A DNA stretch of 64,000 nt from Spirochaetia bacterium (GTDB lineage Bacteria > Spirochaetota > Spirochaetia > UBA9216), in NCBI GenBank assembly GCA_965140585.1, contig OZ223269.1, positions 32,001 through 96,000 on the forward strand, read 5' to 3'. The notes below the pieces were generated by a model. It did not search any database, was not told the origin of the DNA, and saw only the letters and a list, made by a program, of their open reading frames with translations. Position numbers and translations under genes: made by a program. Of this stretch, positions 20,526 to 35,221 are shown one piece after another. Within the stretch, counting starts at the first letter, position 1; each line of letters opens with the position of its first letter.

Positions 20526-21034
20526 CGGGAAAACAGGAATTCCAAAGATCATTACCTCCGTTTTTTTTAAAAGAGGAATCAATTCTTGAAATACTCGAGC
20601 ACAGGCTCTTTCTTCAGACTGCAGATTATAAGCATCATGATACAATAAGCTGTCATTCACACAGTCTGAAGGTAGCGAAGATAGCTTTTGATATTACTGC
20701 AAAAATCAGTGTTGATCGGGTTTCTCTGATCAGGGGGGCTCTGCTCCATGATTTTTATCTATATGACTGGCATGAAGGATGTCCGCCCTTTCACGGGTTT
20801 CGTCACCCTGAGGTTGCACTGCGGAATGCATCAGGACATTTCAGTATTAACAGGGTCGAAAAGGATATAATTCTGCGGCATATGTTTCCGCTCACTCCTG
20901 TGCCTCCCGTTACAGCAGAAGCTGTAATCGTCTGTATTGCCGATAAGGCCGCTGCAATGAAGGAGTATAGTTCTATCTGGCAAGGTAAACTCTGGCAAAC
21001 TCTGTCGCACCTGCGGAACCGCTGCCTGCGGTAA
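20519..21034 (+). CDS. HD-domain phosphohydrolase
   Basis: HSLKVA, GALLHDFYLYDW, HGFRHP, HMFPLT, ADK. Confidence 0.85.
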   Translation: MVAGKQEFQRSLPPFFLKEESILEILEHRLFLQTADYKHHDTISCHSHSLKVAKIAFDITAKISVDRVSLIRGALLHDFYLYDWHEGCPPFHGFRHPEVALRNASGHFSINRVEKDIILRHMFPLTPVPPVTAEAVIVCIADKAAAMKEYSSIWQGKLWQTLSHLRNRCLR

Positions 21035-21722
21035 TTTTGTCAAAACCGCTGAAAACTTCTATTTTTGTAAAACCTGCTGCCTTGAGCTCCGTTTCCAGGA
21101 ACTGCCGGGTCAGCGGCAGCAGCTTTGTGCTGTCTGATTCTGTCTTATCGGTTTCCCTGTCGGTAAGGGAAATGTGAAAGTTGATATATTCATCAGAAGT
21201 AAATTCATAGCTGCGTTTAAAGATATGGCTGTCAGTCTGTATTTCATCAAATGATACATTTCTGTTTTTTAAAATCATATCAAAATTCAGAATCTGAAAT
21301 ATGAAACCTCCCTCAAGGTTAAGGTTTCTTCTTACATCAGCGAAAAAGTTTTTAACTGAATCCTCCGAATCAAGATGAGGGAGTGTGTTTCCAAGGCAGA
21401 GGATTAAATCAAAATTTCCGAATCCGGATATGTCCTCCATTCCTGCAGCATGAAAATCTATTTTTTGCCGAATCCAGTCAGCTGTATTTGCTTTTCTTTG
21501 CTGTGCAGCTTGAATCATTTCAACACTGAGGTCAATCCCTGTAACTCTATGTCCGTTTTCTGCAAGCAGAACGGCAAGTTCTCCGTCCGCGCAGCCGACA
21601 TCAAGGATTCTGCAGGTCTTCTTTACGCCTGCCAAATGTCCAGCTTCTGCAATGCAGAAAGCAGTCTTTCGATTTTCAGAAGGAAAAAGTTCTGAATAAA
21701 AGGGTGAGATCAGTTCATACAT
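20973..21722 (-). CDS. class I SAM-dependent methyltransferase
   Basis: ILDVGCADG, GIDLS, LCLGNTLPHL. Confidence 0.85.
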   Translation of the reverse strand: MYELISPFYSELFPSENRKTAFCIAEAGHLAGVKKTCRILDVGCADGELAVLLAENGHRVTGIDLSVEMIQAAQQRKANTADWIRQKIDFHAAGMEDISGFGNFDLILCLGNTLPHLDSEDSVKNFFADVRRNLNLEGGFIFQILNFDMILKNRNVSFDEIQTDSHIFKRSYEFTSDEYINFHISLTDRETDKTESDSTKLLPLTRQFLETELKAAGFTKIEVFSGFDKITAGSGSAGATEFARVYLAR

Positions 21723-21737
21723 TGATAATTCCGCCTT

Positions 21738-21968
21738 TCAGCCGTTATTTCCGATGGCATTAACCGGACACATTCCCATTGCTTCAGCGCAGGCTGCCTC
21801 TTCTGTTTCATTTTCCGGCTGACTGTATACATAGGCGTAGTCTTCACCCTCTATCATTTTAAAGCACCCAGGTGCTTCGTTGATACATAAGCCGCAGGCT
21901 ATACAGCCGGAATCAATATAATACCTTCCGGCTGTATTTTCCGCAACTTTATCATTCTTGTCTGCCAT
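21738..21968 (-). CDS. monocluster ferredoxin
   Basis: CIACGLC...CPVNAI; AGGAG SD. Confidence 0.9.
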   Translation of the reverse strand: MADKNDKVAENTAGRYYIDSGCIACGLCINEAPGCFKMIEGEDYAYVYSQPENETEEAACAEAMGMCPVNAIGNNG

Positions 21969-22026
21969 TATCTGCTCCTGATGTTTAAATTATAGGAGCT
22001 GCGGCGGCAGAAATAAAGTTTTCTGC

Positions 22027-23037
22027 TCAGATTATAAAAATATTCCCGGCTACAGACAGCCCTGCACCCGATGCTACAGTACATACTTTATCACCGGTTT
22101 TTACTGATCCCTCAGTTACGGCATAAGAAAGCGCCATTGGGATACAGCCCGAGCCGGTATACCCGTATTTATCCATTACCATCACAGCCTTCTCAATCGG
22201 CTGCTTGAGAATGGACATCACTTCCTTTATCACACTGGCATTGATCTGTGTGAATATATAGTGGTCTATTTCATTGGCGGTGTATCCTGCCTTTTCAATC
22301 ATCTCAAGAGTAAATGCAGGCCAGAGTGTGATATTACGATCCCCGGGGAGCCGCTGAAGAAGCTGAAGACCCCATTCATCGTTATCAAGCCTTTCCTTTG
22401 TGATTGGCTGTCTTGTTCCGCCGGAATATACACCGATATAGTCCCACTGAGTACCGTCGGCAAGTTTATGTCCGGTGATATATTTGTTTTCTTCTTTATC
22501 GGTACACTTTTTCAGAACAAAAGCACCTGCACCGTCGGCAAAAATAGAATACCCGAAAGCGTCACCGGGTCTGAAAAAGGCCGGCATGTTATATACGCCT
22601 GCAACAACAGCATATTTAATCTCAGGATCGCAGGCTACCATTCTGGCAGCAGCATCCAATGCAGAAGTGAAACTTGCACATGAAGAGGCTATATCAAAGG
22701 CCCCGGTGTTGTGTTGACCCTTCTGAAGTCTGCCCTGTACAAGTATCGCTGTGGCAGGCGAAATATATTCGGGGGTATCTGTTGCGACTATAATAAGATT
22801 TATATCCTCCGGACTTATTCCGGCCGCCTCAATGGCTTTTACCGAGGCCTTCTCGGCAAAATCCGCGGTGGTTTCATCCAGTCCCCTGAGATGTGCAATG
22901 TGTCTTGTTTTAATACCAATTTTATCTTCAATTTTTTGTGCATCAAACTCGACACCGGCAAGTTTCAGCACCTCCTCATTTGAGATAGGATCACCGGGGG
23001 CATACAGGCCTGTTCCGGCAATAATTACTCCATCCAT
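22027..23037 (-). CDS. KAS III (FabH-fold) family protein, non-canonical (Cys/Thr/Tyr at triad positions)
   Basis: GIKTRH, DIASSCASF, FADGAGA; TQIN replaces HQAN and GYTG replaces GNTS. Start MDGVII abuts the thiolase stop. Confidence 0.85.
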   Translation of the reverse strand: MDGVIIAGTGLYAPGDPISNEEVLKLAGVEFDAQKIEDKIGIKTRHIAHLRGLDETTADFAEKASVKAIEAAGISPEDINLIIVATDTPEYISPATAILVQGRLQKGQHNTGAFDIASSCASFTSALDAAARMVACDPEIKYAVVAGVYNMPAFFRPGDAFGYSIFADGAGAFVLKKCTDKEENKYITGHKLADGTQWDYIGVYSGGTRQPITKERLDNDEWGLQLLQRLPGDRNITLWPAFTLEMIEKAGYTANEIDHYIFTQINASVIKEVMSILKQPIEKAVMVMDKYGYTGSGCIPMALSYAVTEGSVKTGDKVCTVASGAGLSVAGNIFII

Positions 23038-23038
23038 T

Positions 23039-24295
23039 CTAACTCTCCCTTCTGAGTACTGTAACACAGTTTGTGACCGCAGATCCTCCGACATTAAGGA
23101 CTGCAGCAGTTTCAGGTGTCCCCGCAGATGGGGCAGTACCAATCGGATTGCCGCAGAGCTGTTTATAAAGTAAAGCATGCATAGATACACCTGTAGCTCC
23201 TACCGGATGACCCTTTGCCTTCAATCCGCCGGACAGGTTGACCGGACACTTGTCGTCCTTGTCAAAGCGTCCTTCCATGTACTCATAACCCGATTTGCCG
23301 TCTTCAGACAATCCCAGAGCCTCCGTACACAGCAGCTGGTTAATAGTGAAGCAGTCATGCACCTCTGCAATGTCCACATCAGAAGCAGTAATCCCTGCCT
23401 CTTCGTATGCTTGGGCTACCGCTATTTTCCCTGCCATCAGTTCGTGCATATTGGGGCGCACGCTTATCGGCAGTCTTTCGGTAACCTGTGCGATTCCTGC
23501 AACATGAACCGGTTTTGATGCTGATTTTGAGAATTCCTCATTTGTAAGAATGACTGCTGCAGCGCCGTCTGTAACCAGTGAGCAGTCATGCAGTCTAAGC
23601 GGTTCGGCAATTATCGGGTTTTTTTCATCCGGCAGATTTTTTATTGCTTCAGCAGTAAAGAGGCCGAGCTTTTCCGGCACTGCTCCTTTGCCGAAGTGGG
23701 CAAGGGGATTATCAAGAGCATTGCGGTACATTAGAGCAGATACATTCGCAAGCATATCTGTAAGTTTTTCATCGCCCAGTTTATAGTGATCGCGATAGCC
23801 CTTCGCATACTCGGCAAAGAGTCCCGGAAAGGTCATTCCGTTAGCGCCTTCTTCAGGCCAGTATGAGGAGCAGGCAAGAGTATGTGTTACTCCCTTGGTC
23901 GGCAGCAACGACATTTTTTCTGCTCCGATTACGAGGACTCTTTTATATCTGCCTGATTCTATTCCGTAGATTGCGTTATACAGAGCAAGCGAGGAGGACG
24001 CACAGGCTCCTTCTACCCTGGTGGTGGGCAGAAAGCGGAATTTGTCAGGATTAACCTCAAGGCCCAGAGGTCCGATGTGCTCCTGATTTACAAACAGACT
24101 GGGGGAACAGGCTCCAATCCATATCGCATCTATTTCGGAAGGGTCCAGCCCTGCATCTTCAATTGCTCCGTTACCAGCTTCCTTAATCAGTTCATAAAAA
24201 CTGTAATTATCTGTAATCTCTCCGGTTTCCCTGTTTTTTGTAGAGAAAGTTCCGAATTTGGTGTTATAGGCACCTGTGATCCAGGTTTTACTCAT
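23039..24295 (-). CDS. thiolase (acetyl-CoA acetyltransferase, SCP2/HDCF-type)
   Basis: VEGACASS, DCSLVTDGAAA, EVHDCF, KGHPVGATG. Confidence 0.9.
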   Translation of the reverse strand: MSKTWITGAYNTKFGTFSTKNRETGEITDNYSFYELIKEAGNGAIEDAGLDPSEIDAIWIGACSPSLFVNQEHIGPLGLEVNPDKFRFLPTTRVEGACASSSLALYNAIYGIESGRYKRVLVIGAEKMSLLPTKGVTHTLACSSYWPEEGANGMTFPGLFAEYAKGYRDHYKLGDEKLTDMLANVSALMYRNALDNPLAHFGKGAVPEKLGLFTAEAIKNLPDEKNPIIAEPLRLHDCSLVTDGAAAVILTNEEFSKSASKPVHVAGIAQVTERLPISVRPNMHELMAGKIAVAQAYEEAGITASDVDIAEVHDCFTINQLLCTEALGLSEDGKSGYEYMEGRFDKDDKCPVNLSGGLKAKGHPVGATGVSMHALLYKQLCGNPIGTAPSAGTPETAAVLNVGGSAVTNCVTVLRRES

Positions 24296-24324
24296 TTTTT
24301 AACCTCCATTTGTTAAGTTATATG

Positions 24325-24418
24325 TGAATCATCTCTCATTTATTATAGCATAAGCCCTTTATCTGTCAATTTTTTTCTTGACAGTAATAAAAACTGGACT
24401 ATAATGAGAGGTGATTCA
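24325..24418. promoter_or_regulatory. divergent consensus promoters, each with a copy of the 14-bp operator
   Basis: Minus: TTGACA(24369)-16-TATAAT(24347), motif TGAGAGATGATTCA at 24325-24338. Plus: TTGACA(24378)-16-TATAAT(24400), motif TGAGAGGTGATTCA at 24405-24418. Confidence 0.8.
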
Positions 24419-24436
24419 GTATAAACAGGAGGCTAT

Positions 24437-25234
24437 ATGGATATTAAAGGTAAAGTCCTGGTTGTTACAGGCGGCGGAAGCGGCATCGGTGAGGCAGTAG
24501 CAAAGACTATAGCAAAAGCCGGGGCAAAAGTATTTCTTGGGGATATAAACCAGGAGAGCATCGACAGAGTTGTTGCTGAAATTCAGGCTGCAGGCGGAGA
24601 GGCTGCAGGTACTACAGTAAATGTTACTGATGAGAATCAGGTTAAAGAGCTGATGAAAAAAGCAGCTGAGACTTACGGCTCTGTGAATATTGTTGTTCCC
24701 TGTGCGGGAATTATACGTGACGGACTTATGATTAATACAGATAAGGAAACCGGAAAAGTTAAACGAACCATGAGTTTTGATGATTTTCAGTCTGTAATAA
24801 ACATAAATCTTTCAGGAACCTTCCTGACGCTCAGGGAAGCTGCGGCAATTATGGTTGATAACGGATGGGAAGGAGTTCTTTTTACAATTTCTTCAGTAAA
24901 CAAGATTGGACAGGTAGGGCAGCTTAACTACTCAGCTACAAAATCAGCAGTCGGTATGTGGCCGAAGCTGCTTGCAGGCGAATTTCACATGAAGGGAATA
25001 AGCAATATCAGGGTAGTCGGTCTGGCTCCTGGATATGTTGGGACCCCGATGCTTACAAATATGAATCAGGATGCACTTAATGCAATTCTCAAGGATGTTC
25101 ATATCGGAAGACTGATAGCTCCGGAAGAAATAGCAAAACTGATGCTTCATGTTGTTGATAATGAAGCTATTGATGGAACTACCATTGAAATCACCGGAGG
25201 AGTAACATTCGGTTCACGTCAAATCGCTAAATAA
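24437..25234 (+). CDS. SDR oxidoreductase (3-oxoacyl/acetoacetyl-CoA reductase-like)
   Basis: TGGGSGIG, CAGIIRDG, GQLNYSATK. Confidence 0.88.
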   Translation: MDIKGKVLVVTGGGSGIGEAVAKTIAKAGAKVFLGDINQESIDRVVAEIQAAGGEAAGTTVNVTDENQVKELMKKAAETYGSVNIVVPCAGIIRDGLMINTDKETGKVKRTMSFDDFQSVININLSGTFLTLREAAAIMVDNGWEGVLFTISSVNKIGQVGQLNYSATKSAVGMWPKLLAGEFHMKGISNIRVVGLAPGYVGTPMLTNMNQDALNAILKDVHIGRLIAPEEIAKLMLHVVDNEAIDGTTIEITGGVTFGSRQIAK

Positions 25235-25294
25235 GAATGTCTTTGACATTCTTATTTTAGAGTTAGATTATTTCTATGATAGAAATAATCTAAC
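25229..25294. repeat. two adjacent perfect inverted repeats
   Basis: AAATAAGAATGTC-ttt-GACATTCTTATTT (25229-25257) and GTTAGATTATTTCTA-tga-TAGAAATAATCTAAC (25262-25294). Confidence 0.85.
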
Positions 25295-25326
25295 ACCGGA
25301 AATTAATAAGAATAATTGAGGCACTT

Positions 25327-26346
25327 ATGCATATGAAATTTGATAATCCCTGTGTGGGATTAAGAGGATGGGGAACGTATATTCCTGAAACTTTCTGGGA
25401 CGCGGCAAAGGTCTCTGAAGAGAGCGGGGTCCCCGAGAATATAGTTATTGAAAAACTGGGTTTTAAACGCAAGCCTATGGCTCAGGAGCATGAGACAACC
25501 GCATTTATGGCGCTGGAGGCTTCCAGAAAAGCAATAGTCATGGCGGATATCGATCCCATGGCTATTGACTGCGTTATTTACAACGGCGGTCAGCATAAGG
25601 ATTATGTCTGCTGGCTTGCCGGTCTTAATATTGCTGATAAGCTTGGTTCTAAAAACGCCTGGTCATTCGATATGGAGGCCATGTGCGGTTCAATGATCAG
25701 CGGGTTTGAAGTTGCCAGGGGACTTATAGCTTCAGGCCGCTGCAAGACAGTTCTTCTTGCCAGTGGATACCGCAACGGAGATTTTATTAATTACAAAGTC
25801 CCCGAAACTACCTTCATGTACGACCTTGGCGCCGGCGGAAGCGCGGCCATTCTTCAGGGCGGCTACGAAAAGAATATCCTTATGGGATCTTCGTTCAAGG
25901 GTGACGGAAGTTTTTCCGAACTATGTACAGTTAAGTACGGCGGAACTAAACACTGGCCGATGAAGCCGGAAGACGCAGAAAAGATGTATTTTACGATCGA
26001 GGATAATGATCTTTTCAAGGAGAAGCTCAAGGAGGTAACAGTTCCCAACTTCTATGCTGTTATCAGAGAATCTCTTGAGCAGTCAGGGCTTGATGATTCG
26101 CGACTTGATTATCTGGGTATTCTGCATTTTAACCGCAGGACGCACGAAGCATTTCTGAACGAATTTAATTTAAAACCGGAACAGAGTTTCTATCTTGAAG
26201 ACTACGGCCATATAGGCCAGAATGACCAGCTGATTTCACTTGAAGAAGGATTGAAACTGGGCAGAATTAAAGACGGAGACAATGTTGTCTTTGTAGCAGG
26301 CGGTATAGGCTTTGTCTGGGCTGCCTGTGTAATCAGGATGGGATAA
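25327..26346 (+). CDS. KAS III-like protein, non-canonical (GHxGxxD type)
   Basis: FDMEAMCGS, LGAGGSA, ILHFN, YGHIGQNDQ, AGGIGFVW. Confidence 0.85.
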   Translation: MHMKFDNPCVGLRGWGTYIPETFWDAAKVSEESGVPENIVIEKLGFKRKPMAQEHETTAFMALEASRKAIVMADIDPMAIDCVIYNGGQHKDYVCWLAGLNIADKLGSKNAWSFDMEAMCGSMISGFEVARGLIASGRCKTVLLASGYRNGDFINYKVPETTFMYDLGAGGSAAILQGGYEKNILMGSSFKGDGSFSELCTVKYGGTKHWPMKPEDAEKMYFTIEDNDLFKEKLKEVTVPNFYAVIRESLEQSGLDDSRLDYLGILHFNRRTHEAFLNEFNLKPEQSFYLEDYGHIGQNDQLISLEEGLKLGRIKDGDNVVFVAGGIGFVWAACVIRMG

Positions 26347-27154
26347 GCCTTTTCCTTTCATAGAAGCCCATGATCAGTTCGTTTAGTTCATGGGCTTTTT
26401 CAAATATAGCCACATGTCCGCAGTCCGGAATTAGAATCAGTTCACCTGAGGGAATACTATCAGCAATTATTTCTGAAAAGTACGGTGGTTTCAATATATC
26501 TTCTTTACCGCAAAGTACAAGCACAGGTGCTGTTATCCCGTGCAGCTTTGAAGTGATGTCAACAGTAAGAAAGGTACGGTATAGATCCGCCTGTCCGCTA
26601 AAGTACTCTGAGGGAAGGCTGTTCATCTGGCATCCTCTCTGCATGAGAAAATCATGGTTATTCTTAAGATAGCTGCTGCTGTAAAGCCATGGAAGCATGA
26701 TGTTGTAGAATGCTTCGCCATTGCCCAGCTCTGCAGCCGTCAGCCAGGAGCCCACAGCCGCCTCAAGCAGCGGACTTAATTCGCTCACAGAATCGATTAT
26801 CACACCGGAAGAGCACATCTGCGGATATTTAACGGCAAAATACATGAATACTTCGCCTCCGTAGCTTGTTCCAATGAAGGATGCGCGGGAAATCCCGAGG
26901 TGATTCATCAAGCCTCTTAGATCCTCAACATGTTCATCGAATTTAGGTGTCTGTTCAGGTTTTCCTGATTTTAACTGGGCTCGAAAGTCATGCAGAATAA
27001 TCCGGAACCCCGCTTTTTCAAAGACAGGAAGCATCAGGTCCCAGCTTCCGGTTGATGCCATAACGCCGTTGAGAAAGAAAAGAGCCGTATCCGAACCCGG
27101 GTCACCCTTTTCCTCGTAATAGATATTTATTCCGTTTATCATTACTTCAGACAT
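26333..27154 (-). CDS. alpha/beta hydrolase
   Basis: Nucleophile elbow GTSYGG, GKED, GHV; AGGAGG SD before MSEVMING. Confidence 0.85.
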   Translation of the reverse strand: MSEVMINGINIYYEEKGDPGSDTALFFLNGVMASTGSWDLMLPVFEKAGFRIILHDFRAQLKSGKPEQTPKFDEHVEDLRGLMNHLGISRASFIGTSYGGEVFMYFAVKYPQMCSSGVIIDSVSELSPLLEAAVGSWLTAAELGNGEAFYNIMLPWLYSSSYLKNNHDFLMQRGCQMNSLPSEYFSGQADLYRTFLTVDITSKLHGITAPVLVLCGKEDILKPPYFSEIIADSIPSGELILIPDCGHVAIFEKAHELNELIMGFYERKRLIPS

Positions 27155-27172
27155 GAAATTCCTCCTAAAAAC

Positions 27173-27272
27173 TGAATCACCTCTCAAAAATATTAACATC
27201 AGGGCAGATTTGGTGCAAGTTTTTTCTTGACAACGGTAAATAGTCATTCAATAATAAATGAGAGAAGATTCA
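27173..27272. promoter_or_regulatory. second divergent promoter region with two operator copies
   Basis: TGAATCACCTCTCA at 27173-27186 (reverse copy). TTGACA(27227)-17-AATAAT(27250), then TGAGAGAAGATTCA at 27259-27272. Confidence 0.75.
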
Positions 27273-27296
27273 GTTATCATTTTTTTGGAGGTAGAT

Positions 27297-28520
27297 ATGA
27301 CAATGCGAAAGCTAATGCTTCTTGCCGTTCTTCTGCTCAGTACTGCGGTACTGTTTGCCGGAGGACAACAGGAAGGTGGAAAAGATCCGATTAAGCTTGG
27401 TGGTGTATGGCCGCTGGCTGATATTTCAGGGGATCAGGGAAGCAAGGCTGCTCAGCTCGCAGTTGATGAGATCAATGCAAAGGGTGGAGTTCTTGGTCGA
27501 CCACTGGAATTAATTGTAATCGACAGTGAGTTCAAGCCTGAGAAAGGTGCTGCTGCGATAGAGAGACTTGCAACAGTAGAAAATGTTGATGCCTTTATCG
27601 GCGGTATGGCAAGCAGTGTTCATCTTGGACAGATTCCTACACTGAAAAAGTATAAGAAACTTACTGTATGGACAGGTGCTGCTTCAAGTGCTGCAGAAAA
27701 AGCTATGGGTCCGGATGCCGACTGGTACTTCCATCTTCATCCATGGGATTACAACCAGGGTGCAAGCTATGTTGTTGGCTGGGATGCTATTGCTGAAAAA
27801 TATCCGCAGATTAAAATTGACAGGTGGTTCCTAGCTTACGAAGAAGGTCCTTTTGGGAAATCATCATTTGATGCAACAAAGATCCTTTTTGCTGATCTTG
27901 ATATCGATGGAGAATCCTTTCAGTCTGCGGCTGCAGGCGGCGGAGACTACAGTGCTGTTATAGAACATGCAAAGGCATACAAGCCTGATGTATTCATCTG
28001 GGCAGGTTATGATGCTGATGCTCTTCCGCTTCTGGAACAGTCAAAGGCTATGGATTTTAATCCTCCTCTGTACGTTGGAGCTCCTCCAGGATGGCCTGCA
28101 GACTTCGGTGACTCACCTCTGGCCGAAAACGTAACTCTTTACGGAATGTGGGTTCCTTCAATAGACAAGGTAAGTGATGTAAGTAAGAACTTTACAGCAG
28201 GATACAAGGCTAAATACGGCAATGTACCGGCTACATACTTTGCACCGCTTTCATATTCTGCTGTTTATATTGTTGCTGAGGCTATGGAAAAAGCCGGAAC
28301 TCTTGAAACAGAGGCTCTTGTAGCAGCAGCAAAACAGACCAGTTATGAATCCCCGCTTGGAGAAACCATCACTTTCAGCCCGTCAAATGTAATTCAGAAC
28401 CAGGGAATCAGAAACCAGAAGATTCTGCAGTGGCAGAATGGTGTTCAGGAAGTTATCTGGCCGTTCGAATACGCAACAGCCGCACCTGTTTACCCGTTTA
28501 CACCCTGGGGCAAAAGATAA
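27297..28520 (+). CDS. LIV-type (HAAT) ABC transporter substrate-binding protein
   Basis: GGAGG SD, signal peptide, LAVDEIN.KGGVLGRPLELIV.D. Confidence 0.9.
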   Translation: MTMRKLMLLAVLLLSTAVLFAGGQQEGGKDPIKLGGVWPLADISGDQGSKAAQLAVDEINAKGGVLGRPLELIVIDSEFKPEKGAAAIERLATVENVDAFIGGMASSVHLGQIPTLKKYKKLTVWTGAASSAAEKAMGPDADWYFHLHPWDYNQGASYVVGWDAIAEKYPQIKIDRWFLAYEEGPFGKSSFDATKILFADLDIDGESFQSAAAGGGDYSAVIEHAKAYKPDVFIWAGYDADALPLLEQSKAMDFNPPLYVGAPPGWPADFGDSPLAENVTLYGMWVPSIDKVSDVSKNFTAGYKAKYGNVPATYFAPLSYSAVYIVAEAMEKAGTLETEALVAAAKQTSYESPLGETITFSPSNVIQNQGIRNQKILQWQNGVQEVIWPFEYATAAPVYPFTPWGKR

Positions 28521-28533
28521 TATCTTTAAAAGA

Positions 28534-28559
28534 AGGGAAACCTCTCAAGAGGTTTCCCT
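28534..28559 (+). terminator. hairpin after SBP gene (partial terminator or mRNA-stabilising stem)
   Basis: AGGGAAACCTCT-ca-AGAGGTTTCCCT, no U-tract. Confidence 0.6.
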
Positions 28560-28586
28560 CTCTCACTCATCCACAGGAGAATTTAT

Positions 28587-29513
28587 ATGTCGAATAGAAA
28601 GCTAAAGGTAATAGTACCGGTAGCGCTATCCATCATTATTGTAGTGATTCTGCTTATATGGAAACCGACTGTTCTGATATTCGGTGTCCAGAGAGCCGGA
28701 CTGTACGCGGCTATTGCTCTTCCGATGGCTCTTGTCCTTGGAATAGTTCACATCGTCAACCTTGCCCACGGCGAGCTGATGATTCTTGCAGCATACATGA
28801 CTTATAACATAAGCAGGATGACTGGTATTGATCCTCTTATTGCAATGTTTCTTACAGCAGCCGTAATGTTCGTAATCGGGGCAATCCTTTATCAGATTAC
28901 TATTAAAAGAGCAATAAGCGCACCCGAGCTTAATCAGCTGATACTTACATTCGGTATTGCAATGGTCATCAGTCAGGGGATCAACCTTTTTGCAACATCA
29001 CAGCCGAGAAAACTCTCACTCGATTATGTAACGGCTTCTGCCAAAATTGGGGAATTGAGTTTCGGCACCTATGATTTTATATTTGTTGCGGTGGCTGTCG
29101 TCATGCTTGTCGGCCTTCTGTTGTTTCTGAAGAAGACCAGGATTGGTCAGGCTGCACTGGCTGTCGGCCAGAACCCCAGAGGCGCCGCAATAGTCGGAAT
29201 TAATGTACATTTAACCTACATGCTGATTTTTTCAATTTCAACAGCACTTCTTGGAATAATGGGAGCATTCTTTCTCACAAAGATGTCCATATTCCCGACA
29301 GCCGGAGGCCCTTTCACCATGAAATCTTTCTGTCTGGTTGCAATGGCGGGAATCGGAAATCTTCCTGCAGTGCTTCTGGGAAGTATCGGCCTTGGTGTAG
29401 CTGAAAGTTTCATCTCATCATTCAGAGGCCTCAGCGGCTGGTCAAATATAATATTCTTTGTTCTAATTATCGTTGTAATTCTAAGCCGTTCATTAAAGGG
29501 GAGGAAACTGTGA
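28587..29513 (+). CDS. LIV-type ABC permease (LivH-like)
   Basis: IVNLAHGEL, KTRIGQA, GIN; multi-TM. Confidence 0.9.
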   Translation: MSNRKLKVIVPVALSIIIVVILLIWKPTVLIFGVQRAGLYAAIALPMALVLGIVHIVNLAHGELMILAAYMTYNISRMTGIDPLIAMFLTAAVMFVIGAILYQITIKRAISAPELNQLILTFGIAMVISQGINLFATSQPRKLSLDYVTASAKIGELSFGTYDFIFVAVAVVMLVGLLLFLKKTRIGQAALAVGQNPRGAAIVGINVHLTYMLIFSISTALLGIMGAFFLTKMSIFPTAGGPFTMKSFCLVAMAGIGNLPAVLLGSIGLGVAESFISSFRGLSGWSNIIFFVLIIVVILSRSLKGRKL

Positions 29514-30436
29514 AAAACCTGAAAATGATAATTCCTGCTGCTTTGGTAGCGGTGTTTGCAATACTGTTTCCGCTTTTTTCAGGTCCCTATCCTCAGTCAA
29601 TAGCCCGGACAGTAATGACTTATATGGCGCTGGCTGTAAGCTGGGACATGCTGATTCGTTCCGGACAGCTGTCATTCGGTATTGCCGGATTTTTCGGAAT
29701 CGGCAGTTACTTTTCAGCATTGCTCTGTTTGAAGCTTGGAATACCGGCGTTACCTTCAATCATGATCGGCGGTGTTCTTGTCGGTCTTGTGGCTTTTGGT
29801 ATGGGATTCATAGTGTTGAGGCTTAGGGGGATGTATTTTGCAATTACAACCCTTGCCGCTGCCGAAATATTTAAAATAATCATCAGGAACTGGAATGATG
29901 TAACCGGCGGACCTGAAGGTCTTGTTTTAAAAGATGTAATCTTCGGCGGTAATTCTTACGGAATGTACTTTCTTACACTTGCCCTTGCTATAGGAGCAAT
30001 TGCTGCATCTATGTATTTTGAGCGGTCAAAGTTTCATCTGGCCCTGACTTCAATCCGTAATAATGAAATTGTAGCAAGAACCAGTGGAATAAACATCTTC
30101 ATGTATCTTGTAGTTGTCTTTGGAATTACTTCCGGTATACAGGGTCTTGCAGGCGGTGTTTATGCCCAGATGTACGGCTTTGTAACCCCTGACAGCAGTT
30201 TCAGTTCAGACTATACACTCCTGCCTCTGGCCATGTCGCTGCTGGGCGGAATGTACGGAACCTGGGGCCCGGTAGTCGGCGCTCTTCTGCTTGGCATAGT
30301 GTCGGAGTATTTGAAACTCTACATTCCATACGGTCATTTAATTGTTTATGGACTTATTATCGTGTTTGTTATTTTGGTTATGCCTGCCGGAATTACCGGT
30401 CTGATTAAATCAAGATTTTCAAGGGAGGCAAAATAA
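29510..30436 (+). CDS. LIV-type ABC permease (LivM-like)
   Basis: GQLSFG, RLRGMYFAITTL, TGGPEG, LGG.GT.WGPVVGA. Confidence 0.9.
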   Translation: MKNLKMIIPAALVAVFAILFPLFSGPYPQSIARTVMTYMALAVSWDMLIRSGQLSFGIAGFFGIGSYFSALLCLKLGIPALPSIMIGGVLVGLVAFGMGFIVLRLRGMYFAITTLAAAEIFKIIIRNWNDVTGGPEGLVLKDVIFGGNSYGMYFLTLALAIGAIAASMYFERSKFHLALTSIRNNEIVARTSGINIFMYLVVVFGITSGIQGLAGGVYAQMYGFVTPDSSFSSDYTLLPLAMSLLGGMYGTWGPVVGALLLGIVSEYLKLYIPYGHLIVYGLIIVFVILVMPAGITGLIKSRFSREAK

Positions 30437-31155
30437 TGGCTGATCTCGAAATCAAAAGTTTAACCAAGCGCTTCGGTGGTCTGCAGGCTGTTAACGGTGT
30501 TGATCTGACAATTTCGCGCGGTGAAATAGTAGGTATAATCGGACCAAACGGGGCAGGTAAGACAACGCTTATCAACCTGATCTCGGGAGTTATCAATCCC
30601 ACTTCAGGTACCATTCACTTCAACGGTGTGGATATCTCCTATATGGCACCGCATCTGAGGGCACGAATGGGTATTGCCCGTACTTATCAGCTTATTCACC
30701 CGCTTGAAAATCTCAGTTTAAAAGAGAATATAATGGTAGGTTTTGTGTTTGCTCAGGGGATGTCGCAGCGTAAAGCCGCCTCAGAGACTGAAAAACTCTG
30801 TGAATATCTCGGTCTTGAAAATATTACAAGGCCTGTTAGTAAGCTTAATATTCTTGAAATAAAGATGATGGAAATTGCTCACGCTCTTTCAACCGGACCG
30901 ACAATTCTGTTTCTAGATGAAATTATGGCAGGACTTAATGCCGATGAAACCCATAATGTCATCGATCTTGTAAAGAAAATAGCAGTAGAACAGAATCTCG
31001 GGATTGGGGTTGTGGAGCATGTTATGGGTGTTATCAAGGAAACTACAACCAGGGTTGTTGTCCTGGATGCCGGAGAACTGATAGCAGAAGGTCCTTACGA
31101 AAAGGTTGTTCAGAATCCTGAAGTAATCAAAGCTTATCTCGGAGGTGCACTCTGA
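30436..31155 (+). CDS. LIV-type ABC ATPase (LivG-like)
   Basis: FGGLQAV, GPNGAGKTT, LDE.MAGL. Confidence 0.92.
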   Translation: MADLEIKSLTKRFGGLQAVNGVDLTISRGEIVGIIGPNGAGKTTLINLISGVINPTSGTIHFNGVDISYMAPHLRARMGIARTYQLIHPLENLSLKENIMVGFVFAQGMSQRKAASETEKLCEYLGLENITRPVSKLNILEIKMMEIAHALSTGPTILFLDEIMAGLNADETHNVIDLVKKIAVEQNLGIGVVEHVMGVIKETTTRVVVLDAGELIAEGPYEKVVQNPEVIKAYLGGAL

Positions 31156-31856
31156 TGCTTGAAATTAAGAATCTTAACTGTTACTACGGAAAGCTGCATG
31201 TAATCAGGGATCTCAGCATGACAATCGGTGAAGAGTCAGTAGGACTCTTCGGGCCCAACGGTGCAGGAAAAACAACCCTGATTAACGCTGTAATGGGTAT
31301 GGTAAAGCCTGCTTCCGGTGAAATAATATTTGATGGAAATCCTGTGACCGGCATGGAAACTCATCTGGTCGCTCGTTCGGGCATAGCTCTGGTTCCCCAG
31401 GAAAGAGAGCTTTTTCCCTTTCTTTCGGTTTATGAAAACCTGCTTTTAGGGTCTTCATTTATTCCTCATGCTAAGGACAGGCAGGAAGAAATGCTTGAGA
31501 AGGTTTATGCAATCTTTCCGATCCTTAAGGAGCGAAAGGCTCAGCATGCAGGGACTATGAGCGGCGGTCAGCAGCGTCAGCTTGCAATCGGACGATCCCT
31601 AATGTCTATCCCCAAGCTCTTAATCCTGGATGAACCGTCTCTCGGTCTTCAGCCTTCGATCGTGTCAGAACTGTTTACAATTCTGAAGGATATGAAGAAG
31701 GATATTTCTGTACTGGTGACAGAGCAGAATGTAAAAGAAAGCCTCCGGGCAGTTGACAGAGGGTATATACTGGAGAATGGCAGCATAATTATGGAAAATT
31801 CTTCAGAAAAACTTGCCAATGATCCGCATGTTCTGCAGGCTTATCTTGGAATTTAA
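31155..31856 (+). CDS. LIV-type ABC ATPase (LivF-like)
   Basis: GPNGAGKTT, MSGGQQ, LDEPSLGL, EQN. Confidence 0.92.
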   Translation: MLEIKNLNCYYGKLHVIRDLSMTIGEESVGLFGPNGAGKTTLINAVMGMVKPASGEIIFDGNPVTGMETHLVARSGIALVPQERELFPFLSVYENLLLGSSFIPHAKDRQEEMLEKVYAIFPILKERKAQHAGTMSGGQQRQLAIGRSLMSIPKLLILDEPSLGLQPSIVSELFTILKDMKKDISVLVTEQNVKESLRAVDRGYILENGSIIMENSSEKLANDPHVLQAYLGI

Positions 31857-31871
31857 ATAAAGGATGTAAAG

Positions 31872-32639
31872 ATGGATATACCGGGTAAATACATAAGTAT
31901 CAAGAATCACAGACTGTACTATCAGGAACAAGGTGAGGGCAGCCCGGTACTTTTCATCCATGGTAATACAGGTTCACATGTCTGGTTCCGGGATGTTATG
32001 GATATTCCCGGATACCGGACTATTGCTCCTGATATGATTAATTTCGGACGTTCAGATCAGATTGAAGAATCGGATATTAATATTTACGCAGATTATCTGA
32101 ATGGGTTTATGGATGAACTGAAAATTTCAAACTGTCTTGTTGTAGGCCATTCACTTGGCGGCCCAGTGGCTATGTCTCTGGGGCTGCGTTATCCTGATAA
32201 GGTCGGGAAAATGCTTCTGATCGATTCCGGCCCCGTGGAAGGTCTTAAAACACCGGAAGAACATTACAGTGTTATTGAACTGTATAAAACCAACCGTGAT
32301 ATGATAAAGACTGCAATCGCAGCAATGGTGCCAACCTGCAAGGATGAAGATATCTTGAATCTTTTGGCAGATGAAGCTATGTTAATGAATAAATTATCAT
32401 ATGCGGGAAATCCCAGAGCCCTGGCGCGTGCTGATTACAGCGCTGAAGCTTCAAAATTCAAAGGGCCGGTTTTATTCATACGCGGCGCACTTGATCCTCT
32501 TATCACTGAGGATATGGGAAGGCAGACAGCCCGGGCGTTTGACGGAGATTACAGAGAGATTAGTCATGTTGGCCACTCTCTTATGATTGAAGATCCTGCG
32601 CTTTTCATGGAGATACTTGTTGAATTCGACGGCAGATAA
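31872..32639 (+). CDS. alpha/beta hydrolase
   Basis: HGN, GHSLGG, GALD, GHS. Confidence 0.88.
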   Translation: MDIPGKYISIKNHRLYYQEQGEGSPVLFIHGNTGSHVWFRDVMDIPGYRTIAPDMINFGRSDQIEESDINIYADYLNGFMDELKISNCLVVGHSLGGPVAMSLGLRYPDKVGKMLLIDSGPVEGLKTPEEHYSVIELYKTNRDMIKTAIAAMVPTCKDEDILNLLADEAMLMNKLSYAGNPRALARADYSAEASKFKGPVLFIRGALDPLITEDMGRQTARAFDGDYREISHVGHSLMIEDPALFMEILVEFDGR

Positions 32640-33762
32640 AGACAGAAAAACCATCACCAGAGAAAAACTTATAGCATCAGCGACTAAACTTTTTTCAGAG
32701 AATTGGTATGATGCTATTTCAATAGCAGAGATCTGCCGTTCGGCTGAGCTGTCCAACGGTGTTTTCTACCGTTATTTTAAAAACAAGGAAGAAATATTCA
32801 CTGCCATACTTGATGAGTTTCTTGAGATTCATGCAAAGCGTTTTACCCGTTTAAACGGAGATAGTGTAGAGCAGCGGCTTGTTTCTTTTTTCAGTCTTAT
32901 TCTTGAAAGTAACAGCAATGACCTTGCTTATATTAATATTTTCCGTGAAGGTGAATACCGGTTTCCAGAATATGAGCGGAGACTGCGGGACATCTACCTG
33001 TCTGTTCTGAAAGCTGTATACGGCAGGGATATGAAGATAAGCGAATACCTGTACATTGTAGGCAGTATTCGTTTTCTTCTTAGACGACCCTGCTTTACAC
33101 GGGATCATGTAACGGCAGAGTTTTTGAAGGACCTTGTATATCAGGGAATATTTTCAGTTGATCCGCCGTCAAACTTTGATTTTCTGAAGGTTGATGCTCC
33201 TTCTGCCGCGGATTCAATGGATGACTGTGATACCAGAACAAAACTGATTCTGGCAGGCACGAAGCTTATTGCTGAGCACAGTTTTTATAAGGTCAATATT
33301 TATGAAATAACCCGGGCTGCAGGTTATGCGGTAGGAACTTTCTATATTTACTTCAGCAGCAAGGAAGAGTTTTTCAGGGAAGTCGTTCTGTTTTTCGGAG
33401 TACAGCTTAGAAAATATATATCCATTTATCTGTCCAGAGATCTTGGACGTATGGAAGCTGAGCTTCAGGGAATGATTATTTTTCTGAAATATTTTGAAAC
33501 ACATATACAGAATTATCAGATAGTACGGGAAGCCGAGTTTATAATCAGACCTACTGCCCGTGAATATTACAATAAATTTGAGAGCGGATACCTTAAAAAT
33601 CTTACAGAACTTCGTGTAGAGGATAAGGTCATTGCCTCTAACTTTCTTATCGGTATAGCACATTTTCTTGGTATTGAATTTTATTTCAGCGGAAATATAG
33701 AAGATCCTGTTGAAGTTGTGAAAGAACTCGCAGGACCTATGTGCAGCGGCCTTAAAAGCTGA
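32620..33762 (+). CDS. tandem (two-repeat) TetR family regulator
   Basis: Two HTH repeats (TREKLI...GVFYRYFKNKEEIF and TRTKLI...GTFYIYFSSKEEFF). TTG start chosen from GGAG spacing. Confidence 0.85.
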   Translation: MNSTADKDRKTITREKLIASATKLFSENWYDAISIAEICRSAELSNGVFYRYFKNKEEIFTAILDEFLEIHAKRFTRLNGDSVEQRLVSFFSLILESNSNDLAYINIFREGEYRFPEYERRLRDIYLSVLKAVYGRDMKISEYLYIVGSIRFLLRRPCFTRDHVTAEFLKDLVYQGIFSVDPPSNFDFLKVDAPSAADSMDDCDTRTKLILAGTKLIAEHSFYKVNIYEITRAAGYAVGTFYIYFSSKEEFFREVVLFFGVQLRKYISIYLSRDLGRMEAELQGMIIFLKYFETHIQNYQIVREAEFIIRPTAREYYNKFESGYLKNLTELRVEDKVIASNFLIGIAHFLGIEFYFSGNIEDPVEVVKELAGPMCSGLKS

Positions 33763-33777
33763 TATGCATATAAAAAC

Positions 33778-33819
33778 TTGACATATGGAATTTATAGCCT
33801 TAAAATGAGAGGTGATTCA
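33778..33819 (+). promoter_or_regulatory. promoter with fifth operator copy
   Basis: TTGACA(33778)-17-TAAAAT(33801), then TGAGAGGTGATTCA at 33806-33819. Confidence 0.8.
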
Positions 33820-33837
33820 TGCATAATTGGAGGTACT

Positions 33838-35157
33838 ATGACAAAGTGGGAAGATGAATATAAGAAAAAATTTAAATCAATCGAAGAAGCTGTTAAAACA
33901 TTACCGCGTAAAGCTACAGTAATCGTTGGAATGGCCGCTATGGAAGCCCAGGGCTTTCTTACACAGGTTCATAAATATGAGGATAATTTTGATTTTCTGA
34001 AGGTAGGTTCCTGTCTTAATCTTGGAGACTTTCCGTTCTGTCAAGAAAAAAAATACGAAGGTAAATTCTGCAATGACAACTGGTTTTTCGGCCCGTCAAC
34101 CAGAAAAGCTGCGAAACTCGGTTATAAAATTGTTGATTATATGCCTAACAACCTCCACCGGGCAGGACTTGAAAAGGCAATGGCCGAGAAAGAAGAGGGC
34201 AACTACCTTGTCTTCTGGGGCGCGGTGACTCCGATGCAGGCTAAATCCGGTTATTTCAACCTCGGTATTTCTAATGTCTATGAACATGAAGTAATGGCAC
34301 TGGCCGATAAAATAATTCTTGAAGTAAACCCGCGAGTTCCTTACATGCATGGTGAAACCCAGGTTCATATATCCCAGGTTGATGCGATAGTTGAATATGA
34401 AAATCCGCTTCCCACCATACCTATTCCCCAGCCCAGTGAAACTGAGGAACAGATTGCCGCGCATATTGCAGAACTTGTCGGTGACGGCTCGACTCTTCAG
34501 ATTGGTATCGGAGGAATTCCAAATGCGGTTGCAAAACTGCTAAAGGGTAAAAAGGATCTGGGAATCCATACCGAAATGTTTACTGAATCGATGATCGAAC
34601 TCTTTGAGGATGGTGTGGTAACAAACCTTCGGAAGAATTTCTGGCCTGGCAAGTTTGTATGTACTTTTGCAATGGGAACCCAGAATATGTATGACTGGAT
34701 AGATAATAACCCCGGTGTTCTTCTGCTTAAAGGGAGTTATGTGAATAATCCTTATGTTATTGCACAGAATGACAACATGATAAGTATAAATACCGCGCTT
34801 TCAGTTGATATGACAGGACAGGTTTGTTCCGAGTCTATCGGTACGACCCAGTTCTCGGGTACCGGAGGACAGCTTGATACTCACCGTGGAGCAGTTATGA
34901 GCAAGAATGGTAAAGGAATTATAGCCCTGCGTTCAACAGCCAAAGGCGGAACAATTTCCACCATTACACCAACCCTCACACCAGGTTCGATAGTTTCAGT
35001 ACCAAGACACGATATTGACTATGTTGTAACAGAGTACGGTGTAGCTCACCTGAGAGGACGTACCGTAAGCTCCAGAACAAGGCAGCTTATTGAAATTGCC
35101 CATCCCGATTTCAGGGAGGAACTGAGCGGACAGGCCAGAGCGATGGGATTTATCTAA
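33838..35157 (+). CDS. acetyl-CoA hydrolase/transferase family (4-hydroxybutyrate CoA-transferase-like)
   Basis: LQIGIGGIP, GIHTEM, SGTGGQLD, VVTEYG; GGAGG SD before MTKWE. Confidence 0.9.
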   Translation: MTKWEDEYKKKFKSIEEAVKTLPRKATVIVGMAAMEAQGFLTQVHKYEDNFDFLKVGSCLNLGDFPFCQEKKYEGKFCNDNWFFGPSTRKAAKLGYKIVDYMPNNLHRAGLEKAMAEKEEGNYLVFWGAVTPMQAKSGYFNLGISNVYEHEVMALADKIILEVNPRVPYMHGETQVHISQVDAIVEYENPLPTIPIPQPSETEEQIAAHIAELVGDGSTLQIGIGGIPNAVAKLLKGKKDLGIHTEMFTESMIELFEDGVVTNLRKNFWPGKFVCTFAMGTQNMYDWIDNNPGVLLLKGSYVNNPYVIAQNDNMISINTALSVDMTGQVCSESIGTTQFSGTGGQLDTHRGAVMSKNGKGIIALRSTAKGGTISTITPTLTPGSIVSVPRHDIDYVVTEYGVAHLRGRTVSSRTRQLIEIAHPDFREELSGQARAMGFI

Positions 35158-35221
35158 ATTAACACCAATATATAATAAATTATATATTGTCGTCATCCTG
35201 ATGAAGTAGTATATTCATAAT

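Follow-up and report, generated by a model that had tools for sequence, protein, structure and literature searches.

The window analysed here, a stretch of 64,000 nucleotides from a Spirochaetia bacterium (positions 32001–96000 of contig C6 of a 4.85-Mb genome), contains a cluster of genes built around two proteins, designated KAS1 and KAS2, that have the fold of ketoacyl-acyl carrier protein (ACP) synthase III (KAS III, or FabH) but not its catalytic triad. On balance, we favour the view that the cluster serves inducible uptake and coenzyme A (CoA)-level fermentation of esters of the 3-hydroxybutyrate type. Five promoters in the locus share one operator with a sixth, unlinked operon, and the gene set recurs across phyla; it is from these features, together with gene content and active-site residues, that we infer repression by a tandem TetR protein and its effector, the substrate, the direction of flux and the compound on which each enzyme acts.

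Genes were called by open reading frame (ORF) listing and by Pfam and NCBIfam scans, with starts set by ribosome-binding sites and checked by translation. Every gene named in an earlier reading of the window made from the sequence alone (the original prediction) was recovered, although several starts, taken there from the longest ORFs, had to be moved to those indicated by ribosome-binding sites. The nearest public relative of the locus belongs to a Spirochaetia metagenome-assembled genome (MAG), with protein identities of 95–100% across the locus.

A shared operator at six promoters

The five promoters in the locus have the form TTGACA-N16/17-TAtAAT followed by the 14-mer TGAGAGGTGATTCA. Allowing up to three mismatches, this 14-mer matches the window 12 times against 7.2 expected; seven of the matches carry three mismatches, whilst the five with no more than two all lie directly behind a −10 box and ahead of the five transcription units. 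Two divergent promoter pairs account for four of these, one between the genes for a thiolase and a short-chain dehydrogenase/reductase (SDR) (24325–24418, both strands; a 12/12 sigma-70-like site on each side, operators at 24338–24325 on the minus and 24405–24418 on the plus strand) and one between the genes for hydrolase 1 and a substrate-binding protein (SBP) (27173–27272, both strands; operators at 27186–27173, minus, and 27259–27272, plus). The fifth precedes the CoA-transferase gene (33778–33819, plus strand; 11/12 site, operator at 33806–33819). Four of these five promoters are also the four best-scoring sigma-70-like sites of the region 20500–35600.

When the whole genome was searched with TGAGAGRTGATTCA at no more than one mismatch, eight sites were found (none with the reversed control): the five in the locus, one at a promoter on contig C2 (0.4 Mb) and two, on contig C4 and at C6:626600, that were rejected as regulon members for lack of promoter context. 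The C2 promoter (C2:259902) has the same layout as those in the locus, TTGACA-N17-GATAAT-operator, and drives a four-gene operon encoding, in order, a MaoC hydratase, an acyl-CoA dehydrogenase, EtfB and EtfA. The MaoC protein, predicted to be an (R)-type enoyl-CoA hydratase, carries YAGITGDFNPAH, which we take to resemble the hydratase-2 motif. The dehydrogenase is nearest to acryloyl- and butyryl-CoA dehydrogenases (AcrC/Bcd-like; 559 bits, under the cut-off of 640) and is probably butyryl-CoA-dehydrogenase-like, EtfB scores 446 bits against a cut-off of 445, and EtfA has an N-terminal 2×[4Fe–4S] ferredoxin domain. The co-regulation originally claimed for the locus therefore holds and extends to an unlinked operon, and the six units, judged by their sequences, make up one regulon encoding the oxidative as well as the reductive branch of a 3-hydroxyacyl-CoA dismutation. 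A 313-amino acid ORF with an Ntox23 toxin domain (L034:11996–12937, minus strand; 46.9 bits), immediately upstream of the C2 promoter, probably has nothing to do with the regulon.

As had been proposed, all five promoters in the locus carry the motif; KAS2, however, is preceded by a 92-nt spacer (25235–25326, plus strand) with two 15-bp hairpins (fold z = −6.4) and a 10/12 promoter-like site that lacks the operator. In the closest related locus, L009, the gap between the SDR and KAS2 genes is only 11 nt and the spacer is absent; it may have been inserted recently and so have separated KAS2 from the SDR promoter. The spacer sequence is unique in the genome and was rejected as a repeated element. 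The 14-mer itself includes a perfect Shine–Dalgarno-like GAGGTGAT. In the CoA-transferase leader (33806–33876) an ATG 2 nt past this sequence opens a 12-codon upstream ORF overlapping the true start, with no such ORF in the other five regulon leaders. No Rfam RNA family was found at E ≤ 0.1 within 20500–35600.

The gene encoding the tandem TetR (32617–33762, plus strand) has a TTG start inside the 3′ end of the hydrolase 2 gene, and its product is a single chain with two TetR_N domains in Pfam and NCBIfam matches at residues 20–100 and 211–311. The best NCBIfam match is the acrylate regulator AcuR, below cut-off. For the second half of the protein, the best solved relative is TetR chain 6el2 (62.5 bits) and further matches include a 'fatty acid metabolism regulator' and the 406-amino acid Mce3R, so that natural tandem TetRs have a precedent. 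Proteins of the Mce3R type likewise hold two TetR DNA-binding domains in one chain of ~380–410 amino acids, but similarity to Mce3R (9b7y) is weak (28 bits), and the operator of the window protein is a 14-mer found across phyla.

This operator travels with the tandem TetR. Related Spirochaetota loci have the same 14-mer, again directly behind the −10 box, and close variants occur in tandem-TetR loci from Brachyspira-like (TAAGAGGTGATTCAC) and Caldisericota (TTACAGGTGATTCAGG) genomes; four inspected loci that lack a tandem TetR contain no match to the 14-mer at two mismatches or fewer. The exact 10-nt core AGGTGATTCA is found 26 times in the 1.38 Mb of 102 non-redundant related loci, against ~2.6 expected, and is present in 19 of 59 TetR-positive versus 4 of 43 TetR-negative loci (Fisher p = 0.008). 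At least one of the latter four (L009) ends just before the expected position of the TetR gene, and the 40 TetR-positive loci outside the count were scored for exact cores only. Presumably, then, the tandem TetR is the repressor of all six promoters, binding the asymmetric 14-mer over the transcription start. Clusters in Bacteroidota end with a gene for a helical protein of 474–475 amino acids (L019:15730–17154 and L027:14960–16387) that has no Pfam or NCBIfam match. Its copies in a Prevotellaceae MAG and a Marinoscillum MAG share 39% identity, and it may be a regulator standing in for the tandem TetR.

Two KAS III-like proteins with altered active sites

KAS1 (22027–23037, minus strand) and KAS2 (25327–26346, plus strand) were aligned with the genome's own FabH, the catalytic positions being assigned via the motifs HQAN and NTSAAS, which we take to be those of FabH. 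In KAS1 the acyl-accepting Cys is kept but the FabH His is replaced by Thr (FTQIN; FTQ[IL]N as a pattern) and the Asn by Tyr (MDKYGYTGS). Cys/Thr/Tyr is also found in all 12 other KAS1-like rows of the alignment, whilst KAS2 and its three homologues have Cys/His/His (LHFN ... YGHIGQ in KAS2). A 32-row alignment of KAS1 proteins shows C120, T263, Q264, Y291–S296 and D87-T88-P89 to be invariant. Similarity to FabH (EC 2.3.1.180) extends to the C-terminal Gly-rich loop and to the fold as a whole: the predicted structure of KAS1 (pLDDT 91.4) superimposes on FabH structures with TM values of 0.85–0.88 at 26–29% identity, and no solved structure nearer than FabH was found in this Foldseek comparison. 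Neither protein reaches the cut-off of the FabH family TIGR00747 (292.1 bits), with KAS1 scoring 162.4 and KAS2 135.6 bits. KAS2 does pass NF005308 (PRK06840, '3-oxoacyl-ACP synthase') at full length with 398.2 bits against 315, but the name of this family is a generic annotation with no tested function behind it. KAS1-like proteins are numerous (3926 of 8000 scored candidates at E ≤ 1e-20), with homologues recorded in the cultured species Spirochaeta isovalerica, S. dissipatitropha and Alkalispirochaeta sphaeroplastigenens; among the 120 matches listed, its relatives are named 'ketoacyl-ACP synthase III', with one 'hypothetical protein'.

Taken at face value, these names would make the cluster a set of fabH and fabG paralogues of fatty-acid synthesis lying beside a branched-chain amino-acid transporter, without a common function, and it is true that KAS III, FabG-like and LIV (branched-chain amino-acid) are the families to which Pfam and NCBIfam assign them. 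That the names are right is very improbable. KAS1 and KAS2 lack the Cys-His-Asn triad and fall far under the FabH cut-off, whilst the genome has a canonical FabH elsewhere (C6:215727–216710; 389.4 bits). Nor does the locus supply the partners of FabH: ACP, FabD, FabZ, FabI and AMP-ligase were all absent from the 22 ORFs scanned with Pfam and NCBIfam between 16963 and 38541, the ACP gene of the genome being 1.15 Mb away at C6:1247146, which bears out the ACP-free locus of the original prediction. The shared operator and the cross-phylum co-occurrence of the genes, moreover, show one functional unit. To judge from their sequences KAS1 and KAS2 are not FabH, and the warning that an annotation as 'fabH/fabG + BCAA transporter' would be wrong was well founded. 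Both would instead be acyl-Cys enzymes that act on CoA thioesters without ACP.

ACP-independent KAS III folds with altered triads are known in PqsBC, CerJ, DpsC and ChlB3, some of which carry out O-acyl transfer or function as paired paralogues. KAS2 has weak matches to PqsC (44 bits), CerJ (35.5 bits) and DpsC (33 bits), and KAS1 to ChlB3 (31 bits), but all are far more distant from KAS1 and KAS2 than is FabH, and the setting of the window genes is catabolic and not one of polyketide biosynthesis. It is also unlikely that KAS1 and KAS2 form an obligate heterodimer, for each is found alone in whole phyla: Gammaproteobacteria, Cytophagales, Caldisericota and Bdellovibrio have KAS1 but no KAS2, and Thermotogota and Acidobacteria the reverse.

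The linkage of KAS1 to a thiolase recalls the archaeal thiolase/3-hydroxy-3-methylglutaryl (HMG)-CoA synthase/DUF35 complex, in which an archaeal-type thiolase gene is similarly coupled to a gene for a protein of KAS III fold. The thiolase of the window (23039–24295, minus strand) is of the SCP-x/archaeal (HDCF) type, with a VHDCF motif, Cys98 and GHP; its best solved relative is the acetoacetyl-CoA thiolase of that very complex (6esq_A, 198 bits), and the PhlC component of the PhlACB acyltransferase also matches it at 66–74 bits. The KAS1 ATG begins 1 nt past the thiolase stop, and the two genes are translationally coupled. Yet there is no DUF35 gene in the locus (the only PF01796 match in the genome is at C4:109297–109455), KAS1 has Thr where the HMG-CoA synthase His would be expected, and in most phyla KAS1 has no archaeal-type thiolase neighbour. 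The invariant Asp of KAS1 (TDTPE, D87) may sit where HMG-CoA synthase has Glu. Assignment to PhlACB was rejected for want of DUF35, as was the OleABCD olefin/β-lactone pathway for want of OleC or any AMP-binding protein in the locus. A candidate HMG-CoA synthase on contig C7 turned out to be a 380-amino acid ketosynthase of the StlD/DarB family (L038:667–1809; NF005293, 560 bits against a cut-off of 450).

Recurrence of the gene set across phyla

The gene-neighbourhood search suggested in the original prediction, with both KAS proteins as queries, was positive. With KAS1, 83 stretches matched the pattern and 25 encode relatives, several on contigs of only 2–8 kb; they come from Spirochaetota, Bacteroidota, Caldisericota, Bdellovibrio and Gammaproteobacteria. 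Scored by tblastn (E ≤ 1e-10, at least 50% coverage, with Pfam added for one KAS1 locus), the neighbours in these 25 loci include an α/β hydrolase in 17, an SDR in 11, KAS2 in 10, a CoA-transferase in 8, an archaeal-type thiolase in 7 and a tandem TetR in 6. With KAS2, 275 stretches matched and 260 encode relatives. The best 80 of these 260, from Spirochaetota, Thermotogota, Clostridia/Bacillota and Acidobacteria, gave the following counts: SDR 69, CoA-transferase 66, ABC ATPases 56, tandem TetR 55, a hydrolase-2-like protein 40, KAS1 36, a hydrolase-1-like protein 16 and an archaeal-type thiolase 11. Layouts vary, with an SSF symporter serving as the transporter in Bacteroidota and an AMP-ligase taking the place of the CoA-transferase in Cytophagales.

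We then clustered the 1256 ORFs of 104 loci (two of them redundant). Several clusters of 'conserved unknown' ORFs without a Pfam match were taken as artefacts, the one inspected (L098:7839–9158, minus strand) being antisense over a KAS2 match at 8001–8993. Thiolase genes are present in about half of the 104 loci, 38 of the classical type (Pfam check) and 13 of the archaeal type, which implies that the KAS proteins are additions to a standard route and not simple replacements, and which weakens the idea of KAS2 as a plain substitute for a missing thiolase. Seventeen ORFs longer than 450 amino acids (477–685) proved to be LIV-type permeases fused to an α/β hydrolase, in each case a homologue of hydrolase 2. 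They occur in relatives from Spirochaetota, Clostridia and Thermotogota (for example L021:1761–3524, minus strand), and in one of the 17, verified by Pfam, the same reading frame holds both BPD_transp_2 and Abhydrolase_1. A fusion of transporter and enzyme of this kind would be unusual.

Gene order points to preferred partners. Counting as adjacent those genes on the same strand with a gap below 400 nt in the 102 non-redundant loci, and KAS1 orthologues at 50% identity or more, KAS2 adjoins the SDR in 60 of 84 cases, whilst KAS1 adjoins a CoA-transferase in 29 of 50 and the tandem TetR in 24 of 50. The CoA-transferases beside KAS1 and beside the SDR are two paralogues: the former share 45–50% identity with that of the window, the latter a median of 62%. 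In the lineage of the window, only the SDR-type CoA-transferase is present in the locus and KAS1 is coupled to the thiolase instead. Our best guess, drawn from adjacency and active-site chemistry, puts both KAS proteins at steps specific to the pathway: KAS2 would act with the SDR on a 3-ketoacyl-CoA, and KAS1, with its partner CoA-transferase, on an ester or keto acid activated by CoA, possibly an oligomer in which it would split the ester bond with CoA.

The 60 cases in which KAS2 lies beside a FabG-like SDR would also suit a pathway running in the anabolic or fermentative direction, that is, a butyrate-forming module of (R)-specific reverse β-oxidation in which thiolase or KAS would condense, a FabG-like enzyme reduce, MaoC dehydrate, Bcd/Etf reduce again and the CoA-transferase release the product. 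The KAS III-like proteins would then be non-decarboxylative or malonyl-CoA-driven condensing enzymes, a role for which NphT7 provides a precedent. The six units jointly hold all the steps from acetyl-CoA to butyrate, and KAS2 retains Cys/His/His, presumably the triad of the decarboxylating KAS I/II enzymes. We nevertheless think this direction improbable, as the cluster goes with an importer, with hydrolases of the cytoplasm that are permease-fused in 17 loci and with a repressor of substrate type; in aerobic Cytophagales KAS1 is accompanied by SSF symporter, AMP-ligase and hydrolase genes but not by Bcd/Etf; and no acetyl-CoA carboxylase or other source of malonyl-CoA is encoded in any locus examined.

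Proposed pathway, candidate substrate and significance

In the catabolic scheme that we prefer, the LIV-type ABC system would bring in a short (R)-3-hydroxy acid in the form of a small ester or oligo-ester, the likeliest compounds being 3-hydroxybutyrate oligomers or monomers derived from poly-3-hydroxybutyrate (PHB). The system consists of a Peripla_BP_6 (LIV family) SBP with a signal peptide (27297–28520), two BPD_transp_2 permeases (28587–29513 and 29510–30436) and two ABC ATPases (30436–31155 and 31155–31856), all on the plus strand. The 'acyl-CoA uptake' of the original title is a misnomer, as a free acid or ester, and not a CoA ester, would enter the cell. Two serine hydrolases without signal peptides, hydrolase 1 (26333–27154, minus strand; GTSYG nucleophile elbow) and hydrolase 2 (31872–32639, plus strand; GHSLG), would cleave the ester at the cytoplasmic face, and a family I CoA-transferase of the 4-hydroxybutyrate/butyryl-CoA:acetate type (33838–35157, plus strand; PF13336, AcetylCoA_hyd_C, 219 bits; 3eh7_A, 338 bits over residues 7–434) would activate the acid with CoA taken from acetyl- or butyryl-CoA.

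From here the route would divide. In an oxidative branch the SDR (24437–25234, plus strand), on Pfam, NCBIfam and solved relatives a likely 3-hydroxyacyl-CoA dehydrogenase (best (3R)-hydroxyacyl-CoA dehydrogenase 2et6_A, 126 bits, followed by HSD10-type enzymes), would make 3-ketoacyl-CoA and the thiolase acetyl-CoA, with ATP gained via acetate kinase, a family for which the genome has four genes. In a reductive branch MaoC would dehydrate 3-hydroxyacyl-CoA and Bcd/EtfBA reduce the enoyl-CoA, with ferredoxin as the low-potential co-acceptor; this would rebalance NADH, butyryl-CoA leaving as butyrate through the same CoA-transferase. A candidate for the acceptor of the C2 Bcd/Etf is the 76-amino acid, single-cluster ferredoxin encoded in the thiolase operon (21738–21968, minus strand; CxxCxxC...CP pattern), a gene found, among the loci compared, in L009 only. 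The terminal gene of that operon encodes a class I S-adenosylmethionine-dependent methyltransferase (20973–21722, minus strand; Pfam Methyltransf_25/11, below every NCBIfam cut-off) and is likewise kept in L009 only (79% identity). Acetate and butyrate are also the products of the classical 3-hydroxybutyrate fermentation, with which the scheme agrees, and the (3R)-dehydrogenase-like SDR, MaoC-type hydratase and SCP-x thiolase would together form an (R)-type enzyme set.

The regulon can be compared with two known pathways. It shares with PHB mobilisation and 3-hydroxybutyrate catabolism an esterase, CoA activation, a 3-hydroxy/3-keto dehydrogenase, a thiolase and a link to genomes bearing PHB depolymerases. 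It differs in that its enzymes lie under the curated PHB-family cut-offs, activation is by a 4-hydroxybutyrate-type CoA-transferase and oxidation takes place at the CoA level, there is a dedicated ABC importer as well as two extra KAS III-like enzymes, and the MaoC/Bcd/Etf reductive branch is added under the same operator. With D-specific β-oxidation of the peroxisomal type it has in common a (3R)-dehydrogenase-like SDR, a MaoC hydratase and an HDCF thiolase (compare MFE-2, hydratase 2 and SCPx), but here these are separate bacterial genes under repressor control, to which importer, hydrolases, CoA-transferase and the Bcd/Etf branch are added.

Further clues to the substrate come from five KAS1 loci in Gammaproteobacteria MAGs that have PHB, PHBH or 'Madre' in their record titles, one with the accession prefix QZLD01. 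In these QZLD01-order MAGs the KAS1 homologue is 62–66% identical to that of the window and is followed by a hydrolase gene in four of the five loci. In three of the five, a protein of 830–890 amino acids with a PHB-depolymerase esterase domain is encoded 4–6 kb upstream of KAS1 (in L012 the PHB-depolymerase-family esterase scores 131.9 bits for TIGR01840, cut-off 107.85). According to a published account, order QZLD01 correlates with polyhydroxyalkanoate (PHA) plastispheres when conditions are anoxic, and its genomes have more than 10 secretable PHA depolymerases (PMC10817984). To that extent, these PHA-plastisphere MAGs give indirect support to a 3-hydroxybutyrate oligomer as an example substrate.

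Taken together, the importer, the permease::hydrolase fusions, the signal-peptide-free hydrolases and the MaoC/Bcd/Etf operon fit catabolism of an imported ester, and to this extent the interpretation first offered for the locus is supported, if only in part. Several observations weigh against the 3-hydroxybutyrate scheme. No protein of the locus reaches the curated cut-off of a PHB or 3-hydroxybutyrate enzyme: the CoA-transferase scores 283 bits for TIGR03948 (cut-off 674.8), the SDR 112 bits for TIGR01963 (307), and hydrolases 2 and 1 score 97.5 and 75 bits for NF050089 (300), hydrolase 1 also scoring 40.8 bits for TIGR02240 (250.6), both of these being PHB depolymerase/3-hydroxybutyrate-oligomer hydrolase families. 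The hydrolases match enol-lactonases and C–C hydrolases equally weakly, and the SDRs of most related loci are only 28–37% identical to that of the window. The standard 3-hydroxybutyrate route needs no KAS III-like enzyme, which leaves the conserved KAS proteins unexplained by the model. The QZLD01 link may reflect the taxon and not the gene, and in the genome of the window even the best match to the PHB-depolymerase esterase family (52.8 bits) stays below cut-off, from which it follows that the organism would consume soluble products released by others. Finally, given the Shine–Dalgarno-like sequence in the 14-mer, part of its conservation could act at the RNA level, although the fact that it is confined to six promoters speaks for an operator.

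Some of the same observations would sit well with an identical architecture for the degradation of some other ester, lactone or keto compound taken up by the cell. It might be a poly-β-keto or phloroglucinol-derived acid, longer or branched 3-hydroxyalkanoates, 3-hydroxypropionate or acrylate, or a lactone, with the KAS III-like proteins as thiolytic enzymes for an unusual β-keto chain. The phloroglucinol route, which proceeds from 3-hydroxy-5-oxohexanoate through triacetyl-CoA to acetoacetyl-CoA, uses a CoA-transferase, a dehydrogenase and two thiolytic enzymes, and the pair of one KAS and one thiolase that about half of the loci encode would suit two thiolytic steps in succession. C–C (meta-cleavage product) hydrolases are among the best solved relatives of the hydrolases, the TetR is nearest AcuR and the dehydrogenase nearest acryloyl-CoA reductase (NCBIfam, both below cut-off), and the SBP families vary between loci (24–76% identity), Bacteroidota using the SSF symporter, a diversity that also counts against a single substrate of the 3-hydroxybutyrate type. 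We regard a different substrate as a serious but less likely alternative. Only one SDR is conserved, and neither a second, phloroglucinol-reductase-like SDR nor a cyclohydrolase is among the recurrent neighbours; the regulon includes a MaoC-type 3-hydroxyacyl-CoA dehydratase; and KAS1 and a hydrolase stand beside PHB depolymerases in the PHA-associated MAGs. 4-Hydroxybutyrate was rejected as a substrate, as the AbfD-like genes lie elsewhere and lack the operator. One of these, for an AbfD-like (HpaB_N) protein on the small contig C9, adjoins the only other CoA-transferase-like gene of the genome, of the 4-hydroxybutyrate type (both within C9:633–3347). Each of the two is split in two, with one TAG inside the transferase match, which may point to decay of a 4-hydroxybutyrate module or to a fault in the assembly.

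Beyond the methyltransferase gene, whose 3′ end overlaps by 62 nt that of an HD-domain gene (20519–21034, plus strand), come genes for a single-domain TetR (19395–19970), a CmpB-like membrane protein and a PAS-GGDEF-EAL protein (16963–19344), and all four of these flanking genes are without the operator.

Returning to esters of 3-hydroxybutyrate, a more speculative and rather doubtful idea is that KAS1, KAS2 or both are thiolase-superfamily enzymes that cleave oxygen esters with CoA, and not C–C bonds. A 3-hydroxybutyrate oligomer would first be activated at its free carboxyl group by the CoA-transferase; the ester-linked acyl group would then pass to the active-site Cys, with the Thr/Tyr or His/His pair handling the leaving 3-hydroxyl and not a malonyl enolate; and CoA would free the acyl group as 3-hydroxybutyryl-CoA. 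Such ester thiolysis would account for the pairing of KAS1 with a CoA-transferase paralogue of its own, for the retention of KAS genes next to ordinary thiolases and for their presence in PHA-specialist anaerobes. If it took place, an anaerobe could depolymerise PHB fragments whilst keeping the energy of each ester bond.

Our literature search found no paper on the gene set, on KAS III-like enzymes in PHB or 3-hydroxybutyrate catabolism, or on a Cys-His-His KAS III, and as regards the gene set and the KAS III variants the cluster can, within that literature, still be called undescribed. New here are the picture of a six-promoter regulon with an unlinked reductive-branch operon, the cross-phylum association of operator and tandem TetR, the adjacency statistics for two modules and the permease::hydrolase fusions, and a new reaction for one of the KAS enzymes is a real possibility. 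The two proteins represent large unstudied active-site variants of the KAS III fold that await characterisation, and the tandem TetR with its asymmetric 14-mer is a compact, conserved pair that could serve as a sensor for the pathway effector. PHB is both a major microbial storage polymer and a commercial bioplastic. If our interpretation is right, the cluster would encode the principal pathway through which many anaerobes use PHB and its fragments as food, with carriers in Spirochaetota, Thermotogota, Clostridia, Bacteroidales, Acidobacteria and the Gammaproteobacteria of PHA plastispheres; a route now masked by annotation as 'fabH, fabG, BCAA transport' would become visible, and the gene set would provide a marker for anaerobic bioplastic degraders in metagenomes.

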